Positions 7,997 through 39,686 of a DNA stretch of 64,000 bases are shown here, piece by piece. Position numbers and translations under genes: made by a program. This DNA is from Flavobacteriaceae bacterium (GTDB lineage Bacteria; Bacteroidota; Bacteroidia; Flavobacteriales; Flavobacteriaceae): NCBI GenBank assembly GCA_024643425.1, contig JAHEMY010000001.1, forward strand, positions 9,106 through 73,105, written 5' to 3'. The notes below the pieces were generated by a model. That model was not told where the DNA came from and made no database searches. It was given only the letters and a program-made list of their open reading frames with translations. Position 1 is the first letter of the stretch. The number at the start of each line of letters is the position of its first letter.

Positions 7997-8800
7997 TTAT
8001 TTTACAATAAAACTCTTATTTGAAGTTCCAAGTTCACTCTCAATGGAAACAAAATAAGTTCCTGAAGAAAGCTTCACTTCCAATTGAACTACTTGTCCTT
8101 CAAACGAACGGGCATAGAGTTGTTGACCTGAAATACTGTATACTTTCATAGTTCCTTCAGAAGGTTCAGATAACTTAAACGAAACCATTTCATTCGAACT
8201 TACGGGATTTGGATATACAGAAAAGTTAAAGACCTGTGCTTGATCGCCAATATTCAAAATACTACAACTCGCCGGTTCTGGTTCAAAACCTGCCGGGAAA
8301 GCAGCTTCAAAGGTTTCAACACCTGTTAAAGGCCATATATCCAAATTAATAATTTCATTATTTGGATTAATCAAACAAAAAGTTGGATAAGCCGAAACCC
8401 CAAAATTGGTATCTACGGCAGCACTTCCTCCATCCCCACTCGCAGCAGGCGCATGATTAAAAGGTCCTCCATACATTTCTTCATAGGCAATTACTTGCTC
8501 GTCCGTATCAAATCCTCGGTTAATAGACAAACAGTAAACTTCACCTTGGTTACATCCATATTTATCGTGCAATTCACTAAACGTAGGCTGCCAGGTTTGA
8601 CAAGGAACGCAGTCGACAAAAAAGAAATCTAGAAAAACGTACTTCCCTTGAGCTGTAATACTATACAGGTTATGTTCATTTCCTTCGATATCCGTAACGG
8701 TAAAATCGTCTACGATATCTCCTAGGTTATAGTTTTGTACTTGGGCATAGCCCGTAAAAGAGGCGACTATAAGCGCCAAAACGATTGTAATTTTTTTCAT
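7997..8800 (-). CDS. Secreted thioredoxin-fold (TlpA/redoxin-like) protein with T9SS C-terminal sorting domain
   Basis: Signal peptide; YVFLDFFFVDCVPCQ (CxxC); C-terminal tail YPNPVSSNEMV...GTYFVSIESELGTSNKSFIVK. Confidence 0.65.
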   Translation of the reverse strand: MKKITIVLALIVASFTGYAQVQNYNLGDIVDDFTVTDIEGNEHNLYSITAQGKYVFLDFFFVDCVPCQTWQPTFSELHDKYGCNQGEVYCLSINRGFDTDEQVIAYEEMYGGPFNHAPAASGDGGSAAVDTNFGVSAYPTFCLINPNNEIINLDIWPLTGVETFEAAFPAGFEPEPASCSILNIGDQAQVFNFSVYPNPVSSNEMVSFKLSEPSEGTMKVYSISGQQLYARSFEGQVVQLEVKLSSGTYFVSIESELGTSNKSFIVK

Positions 8801-8811
8801 AGGTTAGGTTA

Positions 8812-8875
8812 TTAATGAATGCTAAAACTAATTAATAATTAATTACTTAACAATTAAAAAAACAGCATTCATTAA
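8812..8875. repeat. 12-bp perfect inverted repeat flanking a 40-nt AT-rich spacer
   Basis: TTAATGAATGCT (8812-8823) and AGCATTCATTAA (8864-8875), directly upstream of the minus-strand start at 8800. Confidence 0.7.
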
Positions 8876-9043
8876 AATTTTTCACCCATATCATTTAATA
8901 AGCTCTAAAGACAGCTATTTCAGCGATACCCCACTCAACTCATAGAATTATAATGGGTTACCACAGAATAACACCTAAGTCAATTTTTGATATGATTTTT
9001 ATTGAAATAGCTATTTTTAATCTTCATTCTGTACATTTATAAG

Positions 9044-31280: not shown

Positions 31281-31730
31281 GTGAGTTTACAGAATGAAAT
31301 AATGGATGCCTTAAAAACGGCGATGAAAGAAAAGAATACGGTAGCCTTGGAATCGTTGCGAGCCGTAAAATCTGCGCTTTTGTTGGCTCAAACTCAAAGT
31401 GGTGCAAAAACAGAACTTTCCGAAACTGACGAAGTAAAATTACTTCAGAAGTTAGTAAAACAACGCAAGGACAGTGCTGCTATTTTTAGTGAACAAGGAA
31501 GAAACGACTTAGCCGAGCCAGAACTGGCACAGGCAGCGGTAATCGAAAAATTTTTACCGGAGCAAATGAGCTCTGAAGAAATTGAAAAAGTAATCGAGCA
31601 AATTATATCCCAGTCAGGAGCAAACTCTATGAAAGATATGGGAAAAGTAATGGGAATGGCTAACGCCCAAATGGCTGGAAAGGCAGATGGTAAGACCATC
31701 GCTGCTTTGGTAAAAGAAAAGTTAGGGTAA
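31281..31730 (+). CDS. yqeY: GatB/YqeY domain protein
   Basis: (GTG)SLQNEIMDALKTAMKEKN...LESLRAVKSALLLAQT...; ends ...ADGKTIAALVKEKLG. Confidence 0.85.
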   Translation: MSLQNEIMDALKTAMKEKNTVALESLRAVKSALLLAQTQSGAKTELSETDEVKLLQKLVKQRKDSAAIFSEQGRNDLAEPELAQAAVIEKFLPEQMSSEEIEKVIEQIISQSGANSMKDMGKVMGMANAQMAGKADGKTIAALVKEKLG

Positions 31731-31733
31731 AAA

Positions 31734-31807
31734 GGCCGCGTGGCGCAACTGAATAGCGCATCAGATTTCGGCTCTGAGGGTTGGGGGTTTGAATCCCTCC
31801 GCGGTCA
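31734..31807 (+). tRNA. tRNA-Arg (anticodon UCG)
   Basis: Hand-folded cloverleaf. 7-bp acceptor (GGCCGCG/CGCGGTC, one G-U), D stem GCGC/GCGC, anticodon stem TCAGA/TCTGA with loop TT-TCG-GC, 5-nt variable loop, T stem GGGGG/CCCTC, discriminator A. No encoded CCA. Confidence 0.85.
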
Positions 31808-31809
31808 CA
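31792..31809 (+). repeat. Direct repeat copy 1 (tRNA 3' end; att-like core)
   Basis: AATCCCTCCGCGGTCACA, identical to 31964-31981. Confidence 0.9.
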
Positions 31810-31820
31810 TCAAGCAGCAT

Positions 31821-31963: not shown

Positions 31964-31981
31964 AATCCCTCCGCGGTCACA
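31964..31981 (+). repeat. Direct repeat copy 2 (orphan copy of the tRNA 3' end)
   Basis: AATCCCTCCGCGGTCACA with no upstream tRNA body. Followed by its own terminator. Confidence 0.9.
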
Positions 31982-31983
31982 AC

Positions 31984-32016
31984 AAAAAAGCCTGCAATGA
32001 TTTGCAGGCTTTTTTA
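31984..32016. terminator. Bidirectional rho-independent terminator
   Basis: A-run, stem aagcctgcaa/ttgcaggctt, loop tgat, T-run. Also serves the minus-strand gene ending at 32038. Confidence 0.85.
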
Positions 32017-32037
32017 TTATGTAGGATCTTTGGAACT

Positions 32038-32670
32038 CTATCTATTGCCATAGGCAATGTGAACCCATTTAGTACTTCCACTTTCAATTACTTCTCCGAT
32101 TACTTTTACCATCTGATTTCTAAAAATCACATCTCCATTTCTCGAAGTATTCGGGAATTCAGGTTTCCCCATAACGCCATTTCGCACATTCATATCCATA
32201 TTGGAGATGTACAAATTATTTTTGGAAATTGAAGGTACACCATCCAACATGACCGGTTCATCAGGAAATCCTTTAGTATCTTCAAATTTCTTATACAAGG
32301 TTCTTCCACTGGATTCTTTTAGTTGAACATAGCCCGTTTTTGGGTACAGTGCGTTTATGTTCACAAGAGTCTTGATGTAATAATCTCCTTCTTGTCCAAA
32401 ATTTGATAAATAGCTTTTATAGGATTTAAAGGAGTTGGTTGTTTTTGCGACATTAAAATAGATACTATCTGTTGCTCTGGACAAAGCTTCTAAATGACTC
32501 TTATTCACTTCGTATAAAGAATCGATTTCGTCTTTTTGCTGCTTCAATTCGGTATTAGATTCAAGCAGCTTGGATTCACTAATCTTTAAGTCGTAGGAAT
32601 ACTTTACCACCAGGGCAAATAAAACAAAGATGGAAATGGTAAGAATGGCAACAATCGCTCTAAATTTCAT
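32038..32670 (-). CDS. Membrane-anchored coiled-coil protein with C-terminal SH3b-like domain (hypothetical)
   Basis: N-terminal TM (AIVAILTISIFVLFALVV), heptad-like stretch (SKLLESNTELKQQKDEIDSLYEV), C-terminus MNVRNGV...GDVIFRNQMVKVIGEVIESGSTKWVHIAY. A 6-bp gap separates it from the upstream gene. Confidence 0.55.
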   Translation of the reverse strand: MKFRAIVAILTISIFVLFALVVKYSYDLKISESKLLESNTELKQQKDEIDSLYEVNKSHLEALSRATDSIYFNVAKTTNSFKSYKSYLSNFGQEGDYYIKTLVNINALYPKTGYVQLKESSGRTLYKKFEDTKGFPDEPVMLDGVPSISKNNLYISNMDMNVRNGVMGKPEFPNTSRNGDVIFRNQMVKVIGEVIESGSTKWVHIAYGNR

Positions 32671-32676
32671 AGTTCT

Positions 32677-32988
32677 TTATTTTATGTGAATGGCTGCTTG
32701 CCTTCTTGATCTAATTAATACAACGATGAGTAATGCGAGTAGTACAAAAAAGCCTCCTGCGGCAAAACTTGCAATAAAATTGGCTGGATTTAACACTAAA
32801 AAAACCAAGGAGGCAATTGCAAAAACCCCCATCAGCACCATAAAAAACTTTATCACAAATTCGACGTCTTTAGAGTTTGCTTGCGCCCCAAATACATTTA
32901 TGGTTTTTTGATCGCCAATGGTTACATTTCCCTGGGACTCAATGGTGGTTCCTTCTACTGTGTTTTTTTTGGTTGTTTGTTCGGTCAT
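32677..32988 (-). CDS. Small membrane protein: N-terminal KNT..EG..GN..IGD module plus two TM helices (hypothetical)
   Basis: Residues 8-26 are KNTVEGTTIESQGNVTIGD. TM1 is FVIKFFMVLMGVFAIASLVFLVL and TM2 is FIASFAAGGFFVLLALLIVVLI, with a basic C-terminal end RSRRQ. Confidence 0.55.
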   Translation of the reverse strand: MTEQTTKKNTVEGTTIESQGNVTIGDQKTINVFGAQANSKDVEFVIKFFMVLMGVFAIASLVFLVLNPANFIASFAAGGFFVLLALLIVVLIRSRRQAAIHIK

Positions 32989-33018
32989 AGTTAGATTTAA
33001 ATTATCACGCTTTCATGT

Positions 33019-33474
33019 CTATCCATCTCCAAGCGTAAAGTCGCCTCCTCCTTTTATCGTAACATCCTTCATTGTATTTTTTTCATCATAGTGATCTTGA
33101 CCGGGAGCCCTATCACCAATTTTAATGTTTCCACTGATATCCAAATTAGCCCCTTCTATCGTGTTTTTTCGGGTTATCACATTATTCATCGAGGGGTTTG
33201 GTTTCTTAGATTCAGCAATCCATTTTTGAAGTTCAATTCTAAATTGATCGTCCTTGATCATTTCACTCATTACGTCCTCGACTTCTGCCTGCACTTCCGG
33301 TGATTCCGGAGCTTCTTCCATTTGTTGAATTAAGGATACCTTATCGCTTTTTTTAAACCATCCACGCATCCACTTCACCGAGCCCGAAACAAAATCGTCA
33401 ATAGCGTTATTCACCTCCTTATTCTTGGCACAAGTGTTTACTAATAATCCCAGTCCGAGGGTAATTAATTCCAT
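33019..33474 (-). CDS. Small hypothetical protein with acidic helical centre and two C-terminal KNT..G..IGD-type modules
   Basis: Hydrophobic N-terminus MELITLGLGLLV, acidic stretch EEAPESPEVQAEVEDV. Module copies are at residues 103-121 (KNTIEGANLDISGNIKIGD) and 132-150 (KNTMKDVTIKGGGDFTLGD). Confidence 0.55.
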   Translation of the reverse strand: MELITLGLGLLVNTCAKNKEVNNAIDDFVSGSVKWMRGWFKKSDKVSLIQQMEEAPESPEVQAEVEDVMSEMIKDDQFRIELQKWIAESKKPNPSMNNVITRKNTIEGANLDISGNIKIGDRAPGQDHYDEKNTMKDVTIKGGGDFTLGDG

Positions 33475-33680
33475 GATTTTAATTTTTTTAAAAAACCTAA
33501 ATTCAGCAATAGAATTTCTTTAAATACGATTTATTGAAACTACACAAAACATTTTATAGGTTAAAAATTAAAGGTTAAGTTACTATTTTTTCAATTGAAT
33601 TTAAACATCTGTACTATTATTCTTACTTATCAAAACTATTATTCAGTCACAAAATTCACCAACAATATTTGTGATCTTTC

Positions 33681-35060
33681 TTATGATAACAAGGTTTCAT
33701 CTAAAAAAGTCAAAAACTCATCCTTGGAGTTTTCGGGTTCGAAGAATGCATTATAGACCCAAGCACCGCGATCGAAACATTCCATTTTATATCGAATCCC
33801 AGCTTTTTTTGAAACCTTCAAATAGTATTTTTTAGACTCTTCAAGCTTGGCCAAATAAATGTTTGCTTCCGCCAAGGTTGCCCATTTACTTGCTGTGGGG
33901 TACAAATAATTTGAAGCCCCTTGTACAGCCTTCGTGGCATACTCTCTCATCTCCCTTCGATCAAGATCTAATTTTGCATATAGGAAAGCTACTTTCACTG
34001 CGTTTGTGAATATTTGTTCTTCATCATTAGTAGACAAGGCAAGTTCGTACGCTTTTTTGTAGGTGGCCAAGGTCTTTTCCCCATCTTTTTGCCCCTTACT
34101 TCTCAAGTATTGATTTCGATACAAATCTCCTAGCAATTCCAATAAATCGGGATCCTGATGTGTTTTCTTATTTTTTTCAAGTTGATGCGTAGCGTCGTCC
34201 ACTCGCCCAACAGCTTCCATTGCTTTTATGAGTTTTATGTAATTATCTTCATCCAAGTCTTCTATTTTCGGTTCCAAATCGATAATAGTCGATTCGAAAT
34301 CCTCTTTATTTCTTGGAAAGAAACTCAAAATGATATTTTCCGACATCTGTGTTTTGAAAAAAGGTGTTTGCACGCATGGGTTATCGTCGTCATCAACACA
34401 TTCTGCCGCTCTTTTTGGCACTTCTTCAAAAATGTACTCGACCACATCCATGATGCTTATTTCAGGGTCGATAAAAGGGCGTCTGTGTTTGCCGGAGAGT
34501 ACTTCCAATAAACATTGGGTAAAGAAACTTTCATTATTGTATCCATAGGATTTTTGATTATCCTGACAAGAAGCCATCACCCAAATACCCTGTTCGTCGT
34601 TTAACTTTTGGGCCATTCCATAAAGCCCTTTAATTCCTGTTTGAATCATCCCTTCAGCATGACAACAGTCTAAGAATAACACCAATCGACTCGATGGTAG
34701 TGCATTTACTTTTTCCTTCAGTTCTTCCGCAGTGACCCAGGTTTTTTTATAATTTTCAGCGGTCATTCCGTAGGGTTGCAGAAAAAACTTGTGTTCATCT
34801 CCAAACTTTCCACCATGCCCCGAGTAATAAAGAATGATCGAAGATTCTTCATTTGTTTTTTCCTTCAAGGTATCAAAGGCTTTTAGGATTCCTTGGCGGG
34901 TAGCCTTTTTTTCAGTTAGTAGAATTACATTTTCCTTTGGATACCCAACAAGTTTCTTATTTGTAATTGATTTGTACAAGTTCTGAGCATCTTTCACGGT
35001 ATAGGGTAAATCGTCCCCAACCCCTATGATTAATGCATAGGTGTTATTGCGGTTTTCCAT
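33681..35060 (-). CDS. Caspase-like (peptidase C14) protease fused to a C-terminal all-helical TPR-like domain
   Basis: YALIIGVG..., His in ILYYSGHGG (H82), Cys in VLFLDCCHAEG (C133), then WVMASCQDNQKSYG...FFTQCLLEVLSG. Residues ~275-459 are helical repeats (LLGDLYRNQY..., SKWATLAEANIYLAKLEESKKYY). Confidence 0.8.
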   Translation of the reverse strand: MENRNNTYALIIGVGDDLPYTVKDAQNLYKSITNKKLVGYPKENVILLTEKKATRQGILKAFDTLKEKTNEESSIILYYSGHGGKFGDEHKFFLQPYGMTAENYKKTWVTAEELKEKVNALPSSRLVLFLDCCHAEGMIQTGIKGLYGMAQKLNDEQGIWVMASCQDNQKSYGYNNESFFTQCLLEVLSGKHRRPFIDPEISIMDVVEYIFEEVPKRAAECVDDDDNPCVQTPFFKTQMSENIILSFFPRNKEDFESTIIDLEPKIEDLDEDNYIKLIKAMEAVGRVDDATHQLEKNKKTHQDPDLLELLGDLYRNQYLRSKGQKDGEKTLATYKKAYELALSTNDEEQIFTNAVKVAFLYAKLDLDRREMREYATKAVQGASNYLYPTASKWATLAEANIYLAKLEESKKYYLKVSKKAGIRYKMECFDRGAWVYNAFFEPENSKDEFLTFLDETLLS

Positions 35061-35095
35061 AATTTCATTTAAAAATTAAAACTCGTAGGATTTAA

Positions 35096-37171
35096 TCATT
35101 GCCAAAATTTCATGACACGATCAAAGATTTGGGTTTGAATATAAGGCTGAAAATGTATATCGTATTGAAAGGCTGAAGGAGTATATCTTTTTCCCGAGGC
35201 CACTGCTTTGAGCAAATAATCCATTGCTTCTTTTTCATTTCCTGCAGCAGCATAATATTGGGCCATTCCATAGTCTACCCAACCAAATTGAAAATTTGTA
35301 CGACTTGCATCCAATTTCGATAAATACCTTTGAGCCTTTTCAGAAGCTCCGAGTTTCATCGAAGCGATTGCCAAATAAGGTAAATAATTTATCGCGTCAG
35401 ACTTCTCATACAGCGCTTCATATAACTGCTCGGCTTTTCGATAATTCCCAAGATAATAATAAGCCAAAGGCAATAATTCACGCTCTTCATCTGAAATGGA
35501 ATTCCAATTTTCTTCCAAAGATTTGATTACCTGATTATAATACAGTGATGCAAAGTCACTTTTCCCTTGAATAAAAAATTCTTTCCCTGAAAACAAAGTG
35601 AATGCATGCCATCGTTCGGAGGTATTGTTCAATTTGATACTCGCTAATAAATCATCGACTGCATTCTTATTTCCATTAACAACATATGCCCTTAATAACG
35701 CTTCCTTCACCCATTCGTTACCTTTCAATCGTGAGAAAGGTTCGAGCAACTCGATTGCTTTGTCCATCTCTTTTAATTCGATATAGGCCAAGGCCATTAT
35801 ATAATTTCTAAATTCACAAGAACGGCATTTCTGAAAGTCCATATCTTTCATAGAAAGGGCATTGTAAATTCCCTCCACATCTTCCGGTTTATTGACAAAC
35901 TGCATCGCCAGTACCATAGCGCCGCTATTATTCTCCAGGTTGAAAGGTTCAATGTTGTATTCCTCCTTAAAATAAGTATAGGCATTTCTATTATTCCCTT
36001 TCAGTAAAGCATCATAAAAATTCAACAAATTCATTTGCCTCTTATTATTGCTTGTTTCTTTTGCCAATAAGTGATGGAGGGAATCTGCCACAGCGAATTG
36101 ATCTTGGTTGTAATAGTATTCAATTCGATCTACTTTTGGCTCGAAGTAATTTGGATCAATCGCTATGGCTTCGTTCAATAAGGTTAAATATTCAGGATCA
36201 ATGTTTGAATACTTTGTATGCGCTTCTAATAGCAACTGGTAGGCTTCAAAATTAGGAGGTGTTTCTTCAAATCCTATTTCACTTTCATTCTCCATGACCA
36301 AGTACCCTAAAATACGCTGTTTTAAAGCTTCAATACAATCTAAGGGTGCATTGGGGTCGCAGGTAACTGGTTCGAACGAAATAAGCGTCTTACTCATGGT
36401 ATTGTCCACAATGGAACACTGCACTAACAAGGAGCCTTTACTTAGATAATAAGTACCATTAATAATTTTTGAGGGTTTCAGATAATCTTTGAGAATTCCT
36501 TGATCACCCGCAGTGTTTTTTGAAGCCAACATGACGCTGGAATAATCTTCAATTATTTTAGGGGATATTACCTGCCCCACTTTATTTTGTGTAATCCCAT
36601 GCATAATCCAATCGACCGCCATCTTCCCTACAACATCTAACTTATCGTTAAGGGTATTATTTTCAAATTTTAAAACCGCTATTTTATTTCCCTCTTCAGG
36701 AGTATTTAATAAAGGAATTCCGGCAACTGCGGTTTCACCTGGCTCCACAAAGTTCGCGCGCACAATCAATGAAGCCGACAATAGTGCGATCATAGAGATC
36801 ACTAAAAGGAACGTAAAATACATGCGTTGGAAATTGCTTCTAAAGCGAAATCCAAGAATAGTTTTTGAATTTTTCTTATTCAACTCAATGGCAGATTTTG
36901 CTGAAGCTTTTCGGGGTCGAGCACCTGAAGCCTCCTCCATGCCATGATCTTTCAAAGGTTTTAAACGAAATTTCCAGATTAAATAAACATAGAACGGAAA
37001 CCCAATTAATAGGACAAGAAGAAGGTAAGTCATTGCTAATTTGGGTAAACCGAAAGGTTCTCGAAGCACAGACAACACTTGAAGCAACAACCAACTAGAA
37101 ACAAGGTAAATAGAAAGGTTTTTAAAAACCTCTTTCTCATGACATTCATTAAAAAAATCCTTTATTTTCAT
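35096..37171 (-). CDS. Membrane-anchored TPR-repeat protein with TolB-N/FlgO-like juxtamembrane module
   Basis: Three TM segments in the first ~140 aa, then IAVLKFENNTLNDKLDVVGKMAVDWIMHGI, then ~400 aa of TPR-like helices. It ends 35 bp before the caspase gene start. Confidence 0.65.
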   Translation of the reverse strand: MKIKDFFNECHEKEVFKNLSIYLVSSWLLLQVLSVLREPFGLPKLAMTYLLLVLLIGFPFYVYLIWKFRLKPLKDHGMEEASGARPRKASAKSAIELNKKNSKTILGFRFRSNFQRMYFTFLLVISMIALLSASLIVRANFVEPGETAVAGIPLLNTPEEGNKIAVLKFENNTLNDKLDVVGKMAVDWIMHGITQNKVGQVISPKIIEDYSSVMLASKNTAGDQGILKDYLKPSKIINGTYYLSKGSLLVQCSIVDNTMSKTLISFEPVTCDPNAPLDCIEALKQRILGYLVMENESEIGFEETPPNFEAYQLLLEAHTKYSNIDPEYLTLLNEAIAIDPNYFEPKVDRIEYYYNQDQFAVADSLHHLLAKETSNNKRQMNLLNFYDALLKGNNRNAYTYFKEEYNIEPFNLENNSGAMVLAMQFVNKPEDVEGIYNALSMKDMDFQKCRSCEFRNYIMALAYIELKEMDKAIELLEPFSRLKGNEWVKEALLRAYVVNGNKNAVDDLLASIKLNNTSERWHAFTLFSGKEFFIQGKSDFASLYYNQVIKSLEENWNSISDEERELLPLAYYYLGNYRKAEQLYEALYEKSDAINYLPYLAIASMKLGASEKAQRYLSKLDASRTNFQFGWVDYGMAQYYAAAGNEKEAMDYLLKAVASGKRYTPSAFQYDIHFQPYIQTQIFDRVMKFWQ

Positions 37172-37274
37172 TGTTTTTAGAAAGAAAGAGTCAGCAGTAG
37201 TTTATTGACCATTGTTTTGAAATGTGCTTTTATTTCACTAATATAGTAATAATATAAATCTAAAACAGTACGTT

Positions 37275-37409
37275 ATGGCAACCAAAAAAACCTCAGCTTC
37301 GTCTAAATCTGATGCAAGTTCAAAGAAGGCTTCATCCAAAAGTAGTAATGCCGGTGCTCCTAAAAGAGCATCTTCAAAAAGCGCCATTGATCCTAAAAGA
37401 GGGACGTAA
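37275..37409 (+). CDS. Possible small (44 aa) Lys/Ser-rich basic protein
   Basis: ATG...TAA ORF read by hand: MATKKTSASSKSDASSKKASSKSSNAGAPKRASSKSAIDPKRGT. An AT-rich hairpin (37423-37450) follows. It is below the ORF-track cutoff. Confidence 0.3.
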   Translation: MATKKTSASSKSDASSKKASSKSSNAGAPKRASSKSAIDPKRGT

Positions 37410-37570
37410 ATCAAAGGAGTTTATGGTCATTCCATTATAACCATAAAATCGTTGTTTCAAATCCAAAGAATTTTCCTACAAAAAATGACACATTCCTAGA
37501 TTATGTTTAATTGCCAAACACAATCCGGTATGATTGGTATTTAGTGAACTCAATAATAATGAACATAAAT

Positions 37571-37602
37571 AAAAAAAAGAGGCGATTGTATCGCCTCTTT
37601 TT
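37571..37602. terminator. Bidirectional rho-independent terminator (ends the dcw operon after ftsZ)
   Basis: 8-A run, stem agaggcga/tcgcctct, loop ttgta, T-run. Confidence 0.85.
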
Positions 37603-37643: not shown

Positions 37644-39686
37644 TTAGTCTACATTATCGTGTAAGAAAGAATTGTTTGAGCGCAAATCAATATCGTCATC
37701 ATCTGTATTTACGGAAGTTCTTGATAATTTTGTATCCTCCGAACTCGTATCGTCCAATTCGATTCCCATTCTTTTATAAGCCGGTTGCTTTTCAATGTCT
37801 TCAATCTTGGAAGCACTATTTCTAAACTTATAGTTAAACTCCTTCATTTTCCGCTTTCGTTCTTCCGTGCGATCACTTAATAATTTGGAAATTGGTGAAT
37901 TAATAGGATCTGCAGGCTCGTTAGAATTTCCTTCTTTTTCAGGCGCTTCAACCGTTTTGGTTTTAAACTGAAGTGCTTCTTCTGCCACTTCTTTCGATTC
38001 TTTTGGCTTCGCATTATTAAGTTGCTCTTCCATTTCTTCGTAATCGTCTAAACTATAGCGCTTCACTCCTTTATCGGAGATCTCAGTAATAGGAATAATC
38101 TCCACAGCTTTTACCTCAATATCTTCAATTTTTCGAACCAAAAGCTCAGGTTCGTCTTCCACTTTTTGAACCTCTCTAGATTTTGTCTTTTTGGGTCCAT
38201 CACTCTTTCTTTGAATTGGTAGATCAAACATCAACATTTGTTCATCCATGGGTTCCTCTACAAACTCATCCGATTCTTCCACCATTTTTTGCGGTAAATC
38301 CTCTTTGAGTTCAACAATTTCAAAATCGTTCACATCAATTTCATTGATTTGCAACTGCTGAAATTCGGCCAAGTAGTGAATGTCTACATAACTTGCATCC
38401 ACAGGCAGGTTTTTTAGAAATTCTGAAGTCTCAATATATCCTTCAAAGGGCAATTCTTTTTCTGAGGTTTGCTCTTGATTTGAAGATGTATGTTCTTCCT
38501 CTTCAAAATCTACTTCAAACAAGGTATGACGAATTACAGGTGCTTCTTCAACTTCAACTTCAGCCTCTGGCGCATCTACTGTTTCCTCTTCTATTATTGG
38601 ATCTTTATCTAAAGCAGGGCTTAGGTTGTGTACCGCCTTTTGCTCGTCCTCAAGTGTATGGATGATTTTCTTAGCCTCCGTATTTACGATTTCATTTTGT
38701 TGTTCTGCATTAAACCCCGTGGCGATTACTGTAATGGAAATTGCTCCTTCCAAGGTATCATCTTCTCCAACCCCCATTATGATGTTAGCGCTATGACCGG
38801 CTTCTTCCTGAATATGGTCGCTAATTTCTCCAATTTCATCGATGGTAATTTCCTCCGTCCCAGAGACAATAAGAAGCAATACGTTTTTCGCACCCTTAAT
38901 TTTATTATCATTTAGAAGGGGCGAATCGAGGGCTTTATTAATAGCATCCTTGGCGCGGTTTGAACCAATGGCAGTTGAACTTCCCATAATAGCAGTTCCA
39001 CTATCCGCTAAAACCGTCTTTGCATCTCTAAGGTCAATGTTTTGTGTGTAATGATGTGTAATTACCTCTGCAATACCTCGAGCTGCAGTAGCCAACACTT
39101 CATCTGCTTTTGAGAAACCTGCTTTGAATCCAAGATTCCCATACACCTCACGTAATTTATTGTTATTGATAACAATAAGAGAATCAACATTATTTCTCAA
39201 GTTTTCAACTCCAATATGGGCTTGGTCATTTCGTAGTTTCCCTTCAAACTGAAAAGGAATGGTTACAATACCAACGGTAAGAATATCCAATTCTTTGGCC
39301 ATACGGGCAATAATAGGTGCAGCTCCTGTTCCCGTACCACCTCCCATTCCGGCAGTAATGAAAATCATTTTTGTATTGGTAGAAAGCATTTCTCTAATTT
39401 CTTCCATGCTTTCTACCGCAGACTGCTCACCAATTTTAGGGTTCGCGCCTGCTCCTAATCCTTCGGTTAACGACACCCCCAATTGAATTTTAACGGGGAC
39501 CGGACTGTTTTCCAAAGCTTGAGAATCGGTGTTACAAATAACAAAATCAACGCCTTTAATCCCCTGACTAAACATGTGATTAATGGCATTACTTCCTCCT
39601 CCACCTACGCCTATAACCTTAATAACATTGGATTGGTTCTTTGGCAGGTCGAAGGAAATGTTGTCAAATTCTGTGTTGCTGCTCAT
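37644..39686 (-). CDS. ftsZ: Cell division protein FtsZ with ~330-aa acidic linker
   Basis: GVGGGGSNAINHM, the tubulin signature GMGGGTGTGAAP, and the C-terminal peptide ...NNSFLHDNVD. Confidence 0.95.
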   Translation of the reverse strand: MSSNTEFDNISFDLPKNQSNVIKVIGVGGGGSNAINHMFSQGIKGVDFVICNTDSQALENSPVPVKIQLGVSLTEGLGAGANPKIGEQSAVESMEEIREMLSTNTKMIFITAGMGGGTGTGAAPIIARMAKELDILTVGIVTIPFQFEGKLRNDQAHIGVENLRNNVDSLIVINNNKLREVYGNLGFKAGFSKADEVLATAARGIAEVITHHYTQNIDLRDAKTVLADSGTAIMGSSTAIGSNRAKDAINKALDSPLLNDNKIKGAKNVLLLIVSGTEEITIDEIGEISDHIQEEAGHSANIIMGVGEDDTLEGAISITVIATGFNAEQQNEIVNTEAKKIIHTLEDEQKAVHNLSPALDKDPIIEEETVDAPEAEVEVEEAPVIRHTLFEVDFEEEEHTSSNQEQTSEKELPFEGYIETSEFLKNLPVDASYVDIHYLAEFQQLQINEIDVNDFEIVELKEDLPQKMVEESDEFVEEPMDEQMLMFDLPIQRKSDGPKKTKSREVQKVEDEPELLVRKIEDIEVKAVEIIPITEISDKGVKRYSLDDYEEMEEQLNNAKPKESKEVAEEALQFKTKTVEAPEKEGNSNEPADPINSPISKLLSDRTEERKRKMKEFNYKFRNSASKIEDIEKQPAYKRMGIELDDTSSEDTKLSRTSVNTDDDDIDLRSNNSFLHDNVD

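Follow-up and report, generated by a model that had tools for sequence, protein, structure and literature searches.

A recurrent caspase–TPR-S gene module of Flavobacteriaceae with a putative amyloid-signalling-type motif pair

Introduction

Bacterial anti-phage immunity and eukaryotic innate immunity are linked by three themes: caspase-like proteases, TIR domains and amyloid death switches. The locus considered here, a block of five minus-strand genes (p1 to p5, positions 32038-37171) in a 64,000-nucleotide stretch of a Flavobacteriaceae bacterium (contig JAHEMY010000001.1; hereafter the window), belongs to a family of systems in which caspase, TIR and amyloid-type themes exchange places in a single operon slot. 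Among the closest described systems are those of the Thoeris class, which consist of two genes: in type IV a TIR protein is paired with the caspase-like ThsE, an Arg-specific promiscuous protease, and in type VIII the effector ThsI joins a CMP hydrolase to a TPR region that probably perceives cyclic ADP-ribose, following a prediction by Burroughs and Aravind cited in its description (10.64898/2025.12.03.692087).

Amyloid signalling pairs are the second point of reference, namely the Bell/BASS-NLR pairs (Dyrka et al. 2020, 10.1101/2020.01.06.895854) and Bab/Agp, an experimentally validated antiphage pair of E. coli (Ibarlosa et al. 2024, 10.1101/2024.11.07.622273). In such pairs a small helical effector carries a hydrophobic first helix and a C-terminal motif, sometimes as two pseudo-repeats with a flexible Gly/Pro loop between them, and the adjacent receptor carries a single copy of the motif at its N terminus. 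BASS motifs have been reported together with CHAT, TIR, alpha/beta-hydrolase, guanylate cyclase and effector-associated (EAD) domains, and the Dyrka et al. preprint (10.1101/2020.01.06.895854) makes no mention of Bacteroidetes.

Two further kinds of system place a protease beside a candidate membrane effector. In EACC1-caspase systems (Kaur et al. 2020; Evans et al. 2025) a protease with a variable C-terminal sensor stands beside a transmembrane (TM) protein of ~100 aa, the EACC1 protein, which is activated by caspase cleavage (Evans 2025), and bacterial gasdermin systems follow the same logic, with a protease encoded next to a latent membrane-permeabilising protein.

Here we describe the five-gene block by its gene content, domain identities, accessory status, co-occurrence, motif architecture and gene fusions. 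A preceding reading of the letters alone (the sequence-only reading) had proposed an undescribed caspase-centred conflict or cell-death module, and its general inference proves largely correct, in that the module is genuine and coherent. Based on domain matches and gene neighbourhoods, we read the block as an accessory regulated-cell-death module, probably serving anti-phage abortive infection, with p1 and p2 as its core and p3 and p4 as a Bell-like motif pair, an interpretation to which we give about half of our confidence.

Results and Discussion

The p2 gene (33681-35060, minus strand) encodes a protein of 459 aa whose residues 8-215 (34416-35039, minus strand) match Peptidase_C14 (PF00656) with 71.5 bits against a cutoff of 21.4. 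The same family matches all 15 orthologues in our alignment A1, in which the YYSGHG segment with His82 (34815-34817, minus strand) and the LDCCHAEG segment with Cys132/133 (Cys133 at 34662-34664) are invariant. The closest solved structures in a PDB profile search are metacaspases (to E 2.9e-8), and on these matches p2 is classed as a metacaspase-like member of peptidase family C14 with a His-Cys dyad and a predicted cytoplasmic location. Metacaspases cleave after Arg or Lys. The remainder of the protein is a helical repeat region (residues ~276-459; 33684-34235, minus strand) conserved over its whole length in alignment A1, in which the Pfam family TPR-S (PF20308) is found at residues 276-344. 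For the window protein this match is marginal (27.0 bits against a cutoff of 27.6, E 7e-6); the domain is nevertheless detected in 13 of the 15 orthologues at E<=1e-3 (best E 4e-12), and the precomputed Pfam annotation of P0001, a protein identical to the window p2, includes it. The fusion of an intact C14 protease to a helical-repeat domain, read earlier from the letters, can be given a family name on both sides, for the repeat domain at the level of the orthologues. PF20308 reportedly goes back to work by Burroughs and Aravind in 2020, in which the TPR-S scaffold is said to have been predicted to sense NAD-derived signals.

Homologues of p2 number 262, among them ~66 full-length orthologues at 53-85% identity. 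PADLOC and PHROGs scans of the five proteins return only a generic caspase match, for p2, and the best named match overall is the NCBIfam model 'caspase, EACC1-associated type' (NF047832), at 76.7 bits well below its cutoff of 140. Because of that score and the opposite gene order, we rejected membership of the EACC1 systems, and Pfam and NCBIfam searches at E<=1 find no EACC1 match in p1, p3, p4 or p5. The two arrangements otherwise resemble each other, since both set a protease with a variable C-terminal sensor beside a TM protein of ~100 aa from which cleavage could remove a soluble N-terminal part, freeing a membrane-active fragment. They differ in position and topology, EACC1 being encoded 5' of its caspase with a single TM helix and p4 3' with two, and in that the window module possesses the extra constant genes p1 and p5. 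A gasdermin reading was likewise rejected, as no homologue exists among the five proteins in Pfam and PADLOC scans, which bears out what the sequence-only reading had said; moreover, the candidate effectors of the block are far smaller than gasdermins and share a motif instead of carrying an autoinhibitory C-terminal peptide.

In having an effector enzyme fused to TPR-S, p2 resembles the enzymes of Thoeris-type systems that pair TIR with TPR-S, and in type IV Thoeris, too, the executing enzyme is a caspase-family protease. The combination of caspase and TPR-S is in fact a catalogued architecture (Pfam PF20308), so that the label 'undescribed' is too strong for the core enzyme of the block; what is new lies, among other things, in the p3 family with its motif, apparently undescribed, and in the constant partner p1.

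This partner (35096-37171, minus strand, 691 aa) is encoded immediately upstream of p2. A hydropathy scan shows three hydrophobic segments at about residues 18-36, 44-66 and 116-138, and the loop between the second and third (residues 67-115) is strongly basic, with a net charge of +9. The TM segments and the loop charges place the C-terminal ~550 residues outside the cytoplasm, and we accordingly predict a periplasmic location for the conserved region and the TPRs and a cytoplasmic one for the basic loop. TPRs are matched only in the last ~240 aa, by NCBIfam TPR_END_plus (32.2 bits, cutoff 32) and by TPR proteins in a PDB profile search (to E 4.5e-7), in keeping with the earlier description of a three-TM protein with TPRs. 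Residues ~150-300 form a conserved region that finds no match in the PDB sequence profile search, in which only generic TPR matches occur elsewhere in the protein. In a neighbourhood survey of 69 reference-genome loci (locus numbers are given with the prefix L, individual proteins with P), a p1 gene stands immediately upstream of the caspase gene in ~47 loci (L001-L047), covering both caspase subfamilies and essentially all members of a short group, to which the window belongs, and of a long group of paralogues described below. If the assignment is correct, the pairing of a conserved TM sensor that has a periplasmic domain with a cytoplasmic caspase would hint that immune or stress signals are perceived outside the cytoplasm.

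The evidence for a signalling pair comes from the next two genes, p3 (33019-33474, minus strand, 151 aa) and p4 (32677-32988, minus strand, 103 aa). The 19-residue module that the sequence-only reading had seen in both products is recovered by BLASTP of p3 against p4 (E 2e-6) and occurs twice in p3, as repeat 1 (residues 103-121; 33112-33168, minus strand; KNTIEGANLDISGNIKIGD) and repeat 2 (residues 132-150; 33025-33081, minus strand; KNTMKDVTIKGGGDFTLGD), separated by a 10-aa linker rich in Gly and Asp, and once in p4, close to its N terminus (residues 8-26; 32911-32967, minus strand; KNTVEGTTIESQGNVTIGD). The hidden Markov model (HMM) consensus of the motif is KNVVKGADIKAGGDVHIGDK, with the pattern KN..G[ND]hxhGD. 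As a regular expression the motif is found 27 times in the 2.17 million residues of the six-frame open reading frames (ORFs) of the window and 154 loci and never in five shuffles, and ten further matches lie in two additional loci. These matches are of two kinds only: a double copy at the C terminus of a p3-type protein and a single copy near the N terminus of a protein from the same locus.

In p3 itself, a soluble protein, residues 1-95 make up a helical domain whose N-terminal helix, MELITLGLGLLVN, is hydrophobic. When p3 was searched exhaustively with HMMER, 60 representative relatives were found, and a profile search gave at least 214 clusters, the named ones all from Bacteroidota (Lewinella, Saprospiraceae, Chitinophagales). 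The module common to them is a helical domain of ~95 aa followed by two motifs of 19-20 aa, which are joined to each other by a linker of 10-12 aa rich in Gly, Ser and Asp. Neither p3 nor p4 nor p5 has a significant match in Pfam, NCBIfam, PADLOC or PHROGs, so the small proteins do not fall into a characterised, unrelated family, and p3 founds a Bacteroidota family that has no Pfam model. In p4 the N-terminal motif is followed by a conserved K-D-V-E-F segment just ahead of the membrane and by two TM helices, with an AAGG patch in the second. It is conserved in L002, L003, L015, L070, L152 and L155, and the motif is kept in every genome that has the p3+p4 cassette; the L002 copy starts with His and was found by motif HMMs, not by the regular expression that detects the single copy in p4-type proteins of the window and the other five loci.

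The single copy is not restricted to p4. It opens CHAT-STAND-TPR giants in L151 (MPYPPNSKNIVHGSITAGGNVHIGD) and L154 (MPPPHTQKNIVHGTIIAGGNVHIGD), and other carriers are an 818-aa STAND/TPR protein in L151, a 273-aa protein in L153 and three STAND-TPR proteins in L156. p3 modules, for their part, occur alone or fused upstream of EAD11 (57-70 bits) or of enzymes: a caspase in P0143, a trypsin-like peptidase in P0157, a CHAT domain in P0163 and a DUF900 alpha/beta-hydrolase in P0137. A C-terminal EAD11 is present in about half of the p3-family members listed from the profile search. The caspase of P0143 belongs to the p2 subfamily (36% identity over 230 aa, E 4e-43), and this fusion provides a Rosetta-stone link between p3 and p2. 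By these fusions the p3 module behaves like an EAD-type module; it is not one of the named EADs.

The arrangement closely parallels that of Bell/BASS-NLR, Bab/Agp and fungal HET-S/NWD2, which place a C-terminal motif, in some cases doubled, on a small helical protein and a single N-terminal copy on its neighbour. A layout of this kind, with the motif doubled, is present in the window (p3 103-121 and 132-150, p4 8-26) and in L002, L003, L015, L070, L152 and L155, and with NLR-like partners in L151, L154 and L156. As judged from motif positions, the p3/p4 layout is the genomic signature of amyloid signalling pairs; the partner domains of the motif are the same set as those reported for BASS motifs; and the start of the window p3, MELITLGLGLLVN, may be set beside the 'MEPIS' region of Bab. 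A literature search found nothing on such motifs in Bacteroidota, and p3 with its motif appears to be an undescribed family of amyloid-signalling type in this phylum. The assignment of roles to the small proteins in the sequence-only reading, with p3 as adaptor or substrate and p4 as membrane effector, probably needs to be swapped: p3 has the likeness of a Bell-type membrane effector and p4 carries the single, 'trigger-side' copy. If our reading is right, the motif family would extend amyloid-type signalling to Bacteroidota and would offer a natural case of a 'receptor-side' motif placed on a tiny membrane protein instead of an NLR.

The scheme we propose leads from a trigger through cleavage, amyloid formation and pore formation to a role in defence. 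An envelope or infection cue would act via p1, via a TPR-S ligand or via both and activate p2, which would then cleave after a basic residue, possibly in the K-D-[VIL]-E-F segment that precedes the membrane in p4, or otherwise unmask the motif. The cytoplasmic N-terminal copy in p4 would nucleate a homotypic, possibly amyloid-like beta assembly serving as template for the two motifs of p3, so that p3 releases its hydrophobic first helix and this helix, the TM helices of p4, or both breach the inner membrane; p5 would be a membrane-anchored accessory with a putative periplasmic SH3-like domain.

Several observations weigh against this scheme. The single-motif partner in the window is a 103-aa protein with two TM helices and not, as in the Bell/BASS systems, an NLR or TPR-PIN receptor; no homology between p3 and Bell or Babybell is demonstrable, with no similarity in Pfam, PDB-sequence or Foldseek comparisons; and in the p3 fusions the motif is internal, upstream of the enzymatic domain, which departs from canonical Bell-BASS architecture. 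Lysines occur in the p3/p4 motif, in contrast to the reported K depletion of BASS motifs, and an acidic residue at positions 2-4, comparable to the one that Bell-type helical bundles have at position 2-3, is present in only 27 of 67 p3-family members. The p3 family profile finds no match among PDB sequences, and Foldseek comparison of the AlphaFold2 (AF2) model of p3 with the PDB gives nothing better than E 0.8. At the level of the system, the window block contains no signal-generating enzyme or NTPase, which leaves the activation step unexplained; no recognisable defence island surrounds it in the window; PADLOC and PHROGs do not recognise p1, p3, p4 or p5; and the motif could serve ordinary homotypic beta-strand docking instead of amyloid templating. 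The AF2 model itself, built from 67 sequences, comprises six helices and two three-stranded beta units, at a predicted local distance difference test (pLDDT) score of 65. A HET-s match to p3 in Foldseek at E 9.4 was discarded as evidence, having only prompted the amyloid idea.

The strongest competitor, less probable than our reading and still a serious one, takes up the docking alternative: the motif would be a conventional EAD-like adaptor motif engaged in non-amyloid homotypic docking that brings p3 and p4 together or to the protease, p3 would be an adaptor only, and killing would be due to promiscuous proteolysis or to a pore formed by p4 upon release by the protease. Fusion of the p3 module to EAD11 and to several effector enzymes is what EADs also show (Kaur 2020); the small TM protein EACC1 is activated by its caspase (Evans 2025), and p4 has soluble and TM parts of similar size; and the metacaspase-like proteases of type IV Thoeris kill by promiscuous cleavage. 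The sequence data fit docking and amyloid modes alike. However, p3 and p4 match neither EACC1 models nor, in Pfam searches, EAD models, the gene order is opposite to that of EACC1 systems, and it is the specific hallmark of amyloid pairs that a small helical protein has the motif twice and NLR-like partners have it once, at the N terminus, an observation that inclines us towards the Bell-like motif pair.

Recurrence of the module argues for a functional connection among its parts. All five genes occur in the same order in L070, L002, L003 and L015, and the p3-p5 order after p2 is therefore kept in five genomes, so that the set is not peculiar to the window. A different arrangement is seen in L152 and L155 (two assemblies), where p3 (47% identical), p4 (53% identical, with the motif) and a p5-like gene, matching the TM/coiled-coil N terminus of p5, are divergent from genes for three further proteins: a stand-alone caspase of 277 aa, a CHAT-nSTAND1 protein and a protein of 745 aa. 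In L152, homology to residues 157-688 of p1 covers residues 221-739 of the last of these (E 2e-41), which begins with a nucleotide cyclase and, next to it, a probable TM segment. The presence of all five module types together in L152/L155 supports functional linkage of the five components, and the cyclase fusion supports the view of the p1-type region as an extracytoplasmic sensor coupled to cytoplasmic signalling. Elsewhere p3 genes have CHAT or STAND neighbours, in one case beside a restriction-modification (R-M) system. The idea of a conflict system, put forward earlier from the window alone, is strengthened by these neighbours, by the p3-module fusions and by the occurrence of TIR proteins in the slot of p3 and p4, described below.

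In the clusters of the two assemblies (L152:112-6442, L155:1126-7441), the CHAT-nSTAND1 protein (~1070 aa) includes a beta-lactamase domain, a fold unusual on a STAND protein. In L156 (292-11440) genes for three STAND-TPR giants of 788, 1094 and 886 aa alternate with those for two p3-EAD11 proteins, every giant having a single motif at its N terminus, and one more EAD11 protein and a type I R-M system are found alongside; the locus looks like a defence island densely packed with putative amyloid-signalling pairs.

What follows the short-group caspase gene varies among loci. The slot holds p3 and p4 in the window, L070, L002, L003 and L015 (type a); a TIR_2 protein of ~300 aa (52.9 bits against a cutoff of 28) with a C-terminal TM module in six loci (type b); a TM module that lacks TIR and is related to the C terminus of type b (E about 1e-24) in eight (type c); and nothing in five (type d). 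A TIR gene thus lies immediately downstream in loci orthologous or paralogous to the window module, as in Thoeris, whereas the 64-kb window has none (tblastn with five TIR queries), nor do p1-p5 contain a TIR domain in Pfam searches. The earlier statement that TIR is absent is accordingly true of the window and untrue of the family.

The TIR proteins nearest to the window lack the catalytic Glu: in alignment to the ThsB proteins of type IV (E. coli) and type I (B. cereus), the five TIR-TM proteins of the short subgroup have Asp or Gln at this position, and they may be adaptor-type TIRs or TIRs being lost. Examples of such TIR-TM proteins are encoded at L005:11463-12371, L023:11572-12474 and L024:11484-12386. 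In contrast, the TIRs of the long group retain the catalytic Glu. This group consists of paralogues of ~745 aa with an alpha/beta-hydrolase domain between caspase and TPR-S, preceded by a gene for a TM protein of ~175 aa and followed by one or two genes with TIR-like N termini homologous to the TIR proteins of the short group; from their domain content these loci look like uncharacterised Thoeris-type systems with a double-enzyme (caspase-hydrolase-TPR-S) effector. One such paralogous system, of six-gene type and with a p1-like protein of 650 aa, spans L028:7482-13497 and recurs in L029-L047 (Lutibacter, Altibacter, Aureitalea and others).

On these comparisons the family would descend from, or be sister to, Thoeris-type TIR and caspase-TPR-S systems, with p3 and p4 occupying the TIR slot. 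Thoeris systems differ in having two genes only, with no p1-type membrane protein, p5-like gene or motif-sharing pair. The Glu-less TIRs of the short group and their frequent absence indicate that the window system is not simply a Thoeris system minus its TIR, and the window lineage appears to have abandoned TIR catalysis. Seen from the side of the amyloid pairs, what sets the window apart from the Bell/BASS systems is that its pair is embedded in a caspase-TPR-S operon. In a bolder form of our reading, which we find rather improbable, p3 and p4 would represent an unrecognised amyloid-type motif family of Bacteroidota, coupled to a caspase-TPR-S protease and a periplasmic TM sensor, in which p4, triggered by a protease or by the membrane itself and not by NTPase oligomerisation, nucleates a prion-like fold that turns p3 into a pore, and amyloid templating would have replaced TIR second messengers inside one system family. 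The new elements of the module are the constant p1 partner, the p3 family with its motif, apparently undescribed, and their combination with a protease where an NLR would stand.

Alternatively, the block could be a decayed Thoeris-like system that has lost its signal generator and is inert or uses a TIR encoded elsewhere, with p3-p5 as unrelated cargo. The long group's catalytic-Glu TIRs beside caspase-TPR-S, the lack of a TIR in the window, the five orthologous loci with an empty slot and the link of TPR-S to TIR-derived signals all point in this direction. Decay, though, sits poorly with five intact ORFs, an invariant dyad and orthologues that are 53-85% identical over their full length, and unrelated cargo with the p3-p5 order kept after p2 in five genomes, the fusion of the p3 module to a p2-type caspase and the assembly of the five modules in L152/L155. 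The TIR-less TM module also persists in eight loci, suggesting function without TIR, and we consider the decayed-system explanation unlikely.

The last gene of the module in the window is p5 (32038-32670, minus strand, 210 aa). A homologous p5-like gene (E 4e-16 to the window p5; alignment A6) follows slot types a to c and is thus the recurrent last gene of all cassette types. In the protein, a TM anchor at the N terminus and a coiled coil are joined to a C-terminal domain with an SH3-like sequence pattern (VRxGVIG...GxxVxV...WxxIxY in alignment A6), which is suggestive of SH3 at most. SH3_3 matches two orthologues weakly (E 0.04 and 0.12) and the window p5 not at all, the p5 family profile finds no match, and no SH3, among PDB sequences, and the AF2 model (8 sequences, pLDDT 47) is unusable; of the earlier description as a TM/coiled-coil/SH3b-like protein, the first part stands and the second is left with these weak matches. 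With p1, p3 and p4, p5 makes up four families that have no Pfam family match above the curated cutoff and that, if our reading is right, are candidates for defence-system catalogues.

The block is accessory. We scanned metagenomes with the neighbouring YqeY protein and obtained 80 loci, in ~50 of which, from related Flavobacteriia, ftsA, ftsZ and yqeY are contiguous on one strand, usually with the same tRNA-Arg next. The block lies directly 3' of ftsZ only in the window, in L070 (all five genes, then yqeY), in L003 (all five) and in L001 (p1 and p2 only), and is thus an accessory insertion just downstream of ftsZ and not a piece of core synteny, as ftsZ abuts yqeY in the ~50 related loci. Muriicola, Gilvibacter, Lentiprolixibacter, Croceitalea and others carry the module at another genome site, and in the first three, among others, no ftsZ lies within 10 kb.

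These data bear on a non-conflict role in the envelope or in cell division, in which p1, p2 and p5 would form a periplasm-sensing proteolytic regulator and owe their place near ftsZ to that function. The block does follow ftsZ directly in four genomes, p1 and p5 have predicted periplasmic domains, and p5 has a weak ZapG-like Pfam match (E 0.043). That match, however, lies in the TM/coiled-coil segment and far below the cutoff, the block is missing from the ~50 related ftsZ-yqeY junctions and stands elsewhere in Muriicola, Gilvibacter, Lentiprolixibacter and others, and the partners TIR, CHAT, STAND and EAD11 are typical of conflict systems, which makes such a role very improbable.

The five intact genes are separated by 35 bp (p1-p2), 206 bp (p2-p3), 30 bp (p3-p4) and 6 bp (p4-p5), and the ORF list agrees with the gene coordinates and gaps first described. 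Within the 206-bp gap the TAGTTTTG box noted earlier is present on the minus strand (33631-33638, read from 33638 to 33631) and fits what we take to be the Bacteroidota -7 promoter consensus, TAnnTTTG; it is a possible -7 promoter element for p3-p5. Bacteroidota promoters differ from the sigma-70 type, and a sigma-70 promoter scan was uninformative, with 17 sites against 18.6 expected under a consensus that is not that of Bacteroidota. On the far side of p1 the intrinsic terminator of ftsZ is confirmed as a hairpin at 37602-37574 (minus strand), and since ftsZ is terminated there, p1 must have its own promoter within 37172-37573. This spacer is unusually long (~400 bp), and the equivalent region of L070 contains a called 44-aa ORF on the opposite strand. 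Just 3' of p5, a GC-rich hairpin with T-runs on both strands (31978-32021) is a probable bidirectional terminator closing the module. G+C is flat at ~0.33-0.39 over block and flanks, and composition consequently gives the block no foreign mark.

The other flank holds tRNA-Arg(TCG) (31734-31808, plus strand), the sole tRNA within the window. The att-like scar that the sequence-only reading saw here is real as a repeat, since 22 nt at the tRNA 3' end recur directly 172 bp away (31792-31813 and 31964-31985, 95% identical); as a boundary of the block it fails, for the repeat encloses only ~150 bp and leaves the five genes outside. No second copy of the tRNA-Arg 3' end was found on the ftsZ side and no integrase was seen, and we rejected a tRNA att-site island in the classical sense on account of the short interval and the lack of a further copy near ftsZ. 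The repeat resembles an integration or excision scar unrelated to the block boundaries.

That p4 and p5 are caspase-unrelated, holin- and spanin-like remnants of a phage lysis cassette integrated at tRNA-Arg is hardly credible: the tRNA repeat suggests past integration, and p5 and p4 have weak matches to PHROG Rz-like spanins (E 0.02-0.06) and a Pfam holin (E 0.44), but these are insignificant and fall only in TM/coiled-coil segments, phage genes including an integrase are absent, the repeat encloses just ~150 bp, p4 always occurs with p3 and its motif, and a p5-like gene follows the caspase in every cassette type.

The junction next to the block is variable in other respects. In the window yqeY and tRNA-Arg(TCG) (31281-31808) are inverted relative to the dcw cluster and convergent with ftsZ, whereas they are co-directional in L070 (13329-13916), L001 (11513-12100) and ~50 other loci. 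L076, with a junction of 125 bp, and L074 and L080, with unrelated cargo, share the window's orientation, which suggests a lineage-specific inversion with its breakpoint at the junction. In L074 an 86-aa ORF (8637-8949, MYFVYVLFSE...) ends in or adjacent to tRNA-Arg at this same variable junction, and by eye we take it to be GIY-YIG-like. The contig of L003 (CAZOSF010000038.1) is labelled 'uncultured Alteromonas sp.' and has a Flavobacteriaceae-type dcw cluster with the full five-gene module and an FtsA 90% identical to that of the window; it is probably mis-binned. Finally, the FtsZ encoded in the window (37644-39686) measures 680 aa and has an acidic, low-complexity linker of ~300 aa between its tubulin-like core (the first ~320 aa) and the conserved C-terminal peptide, and its homologues in related loci are likewise long, at 669-699 aa.

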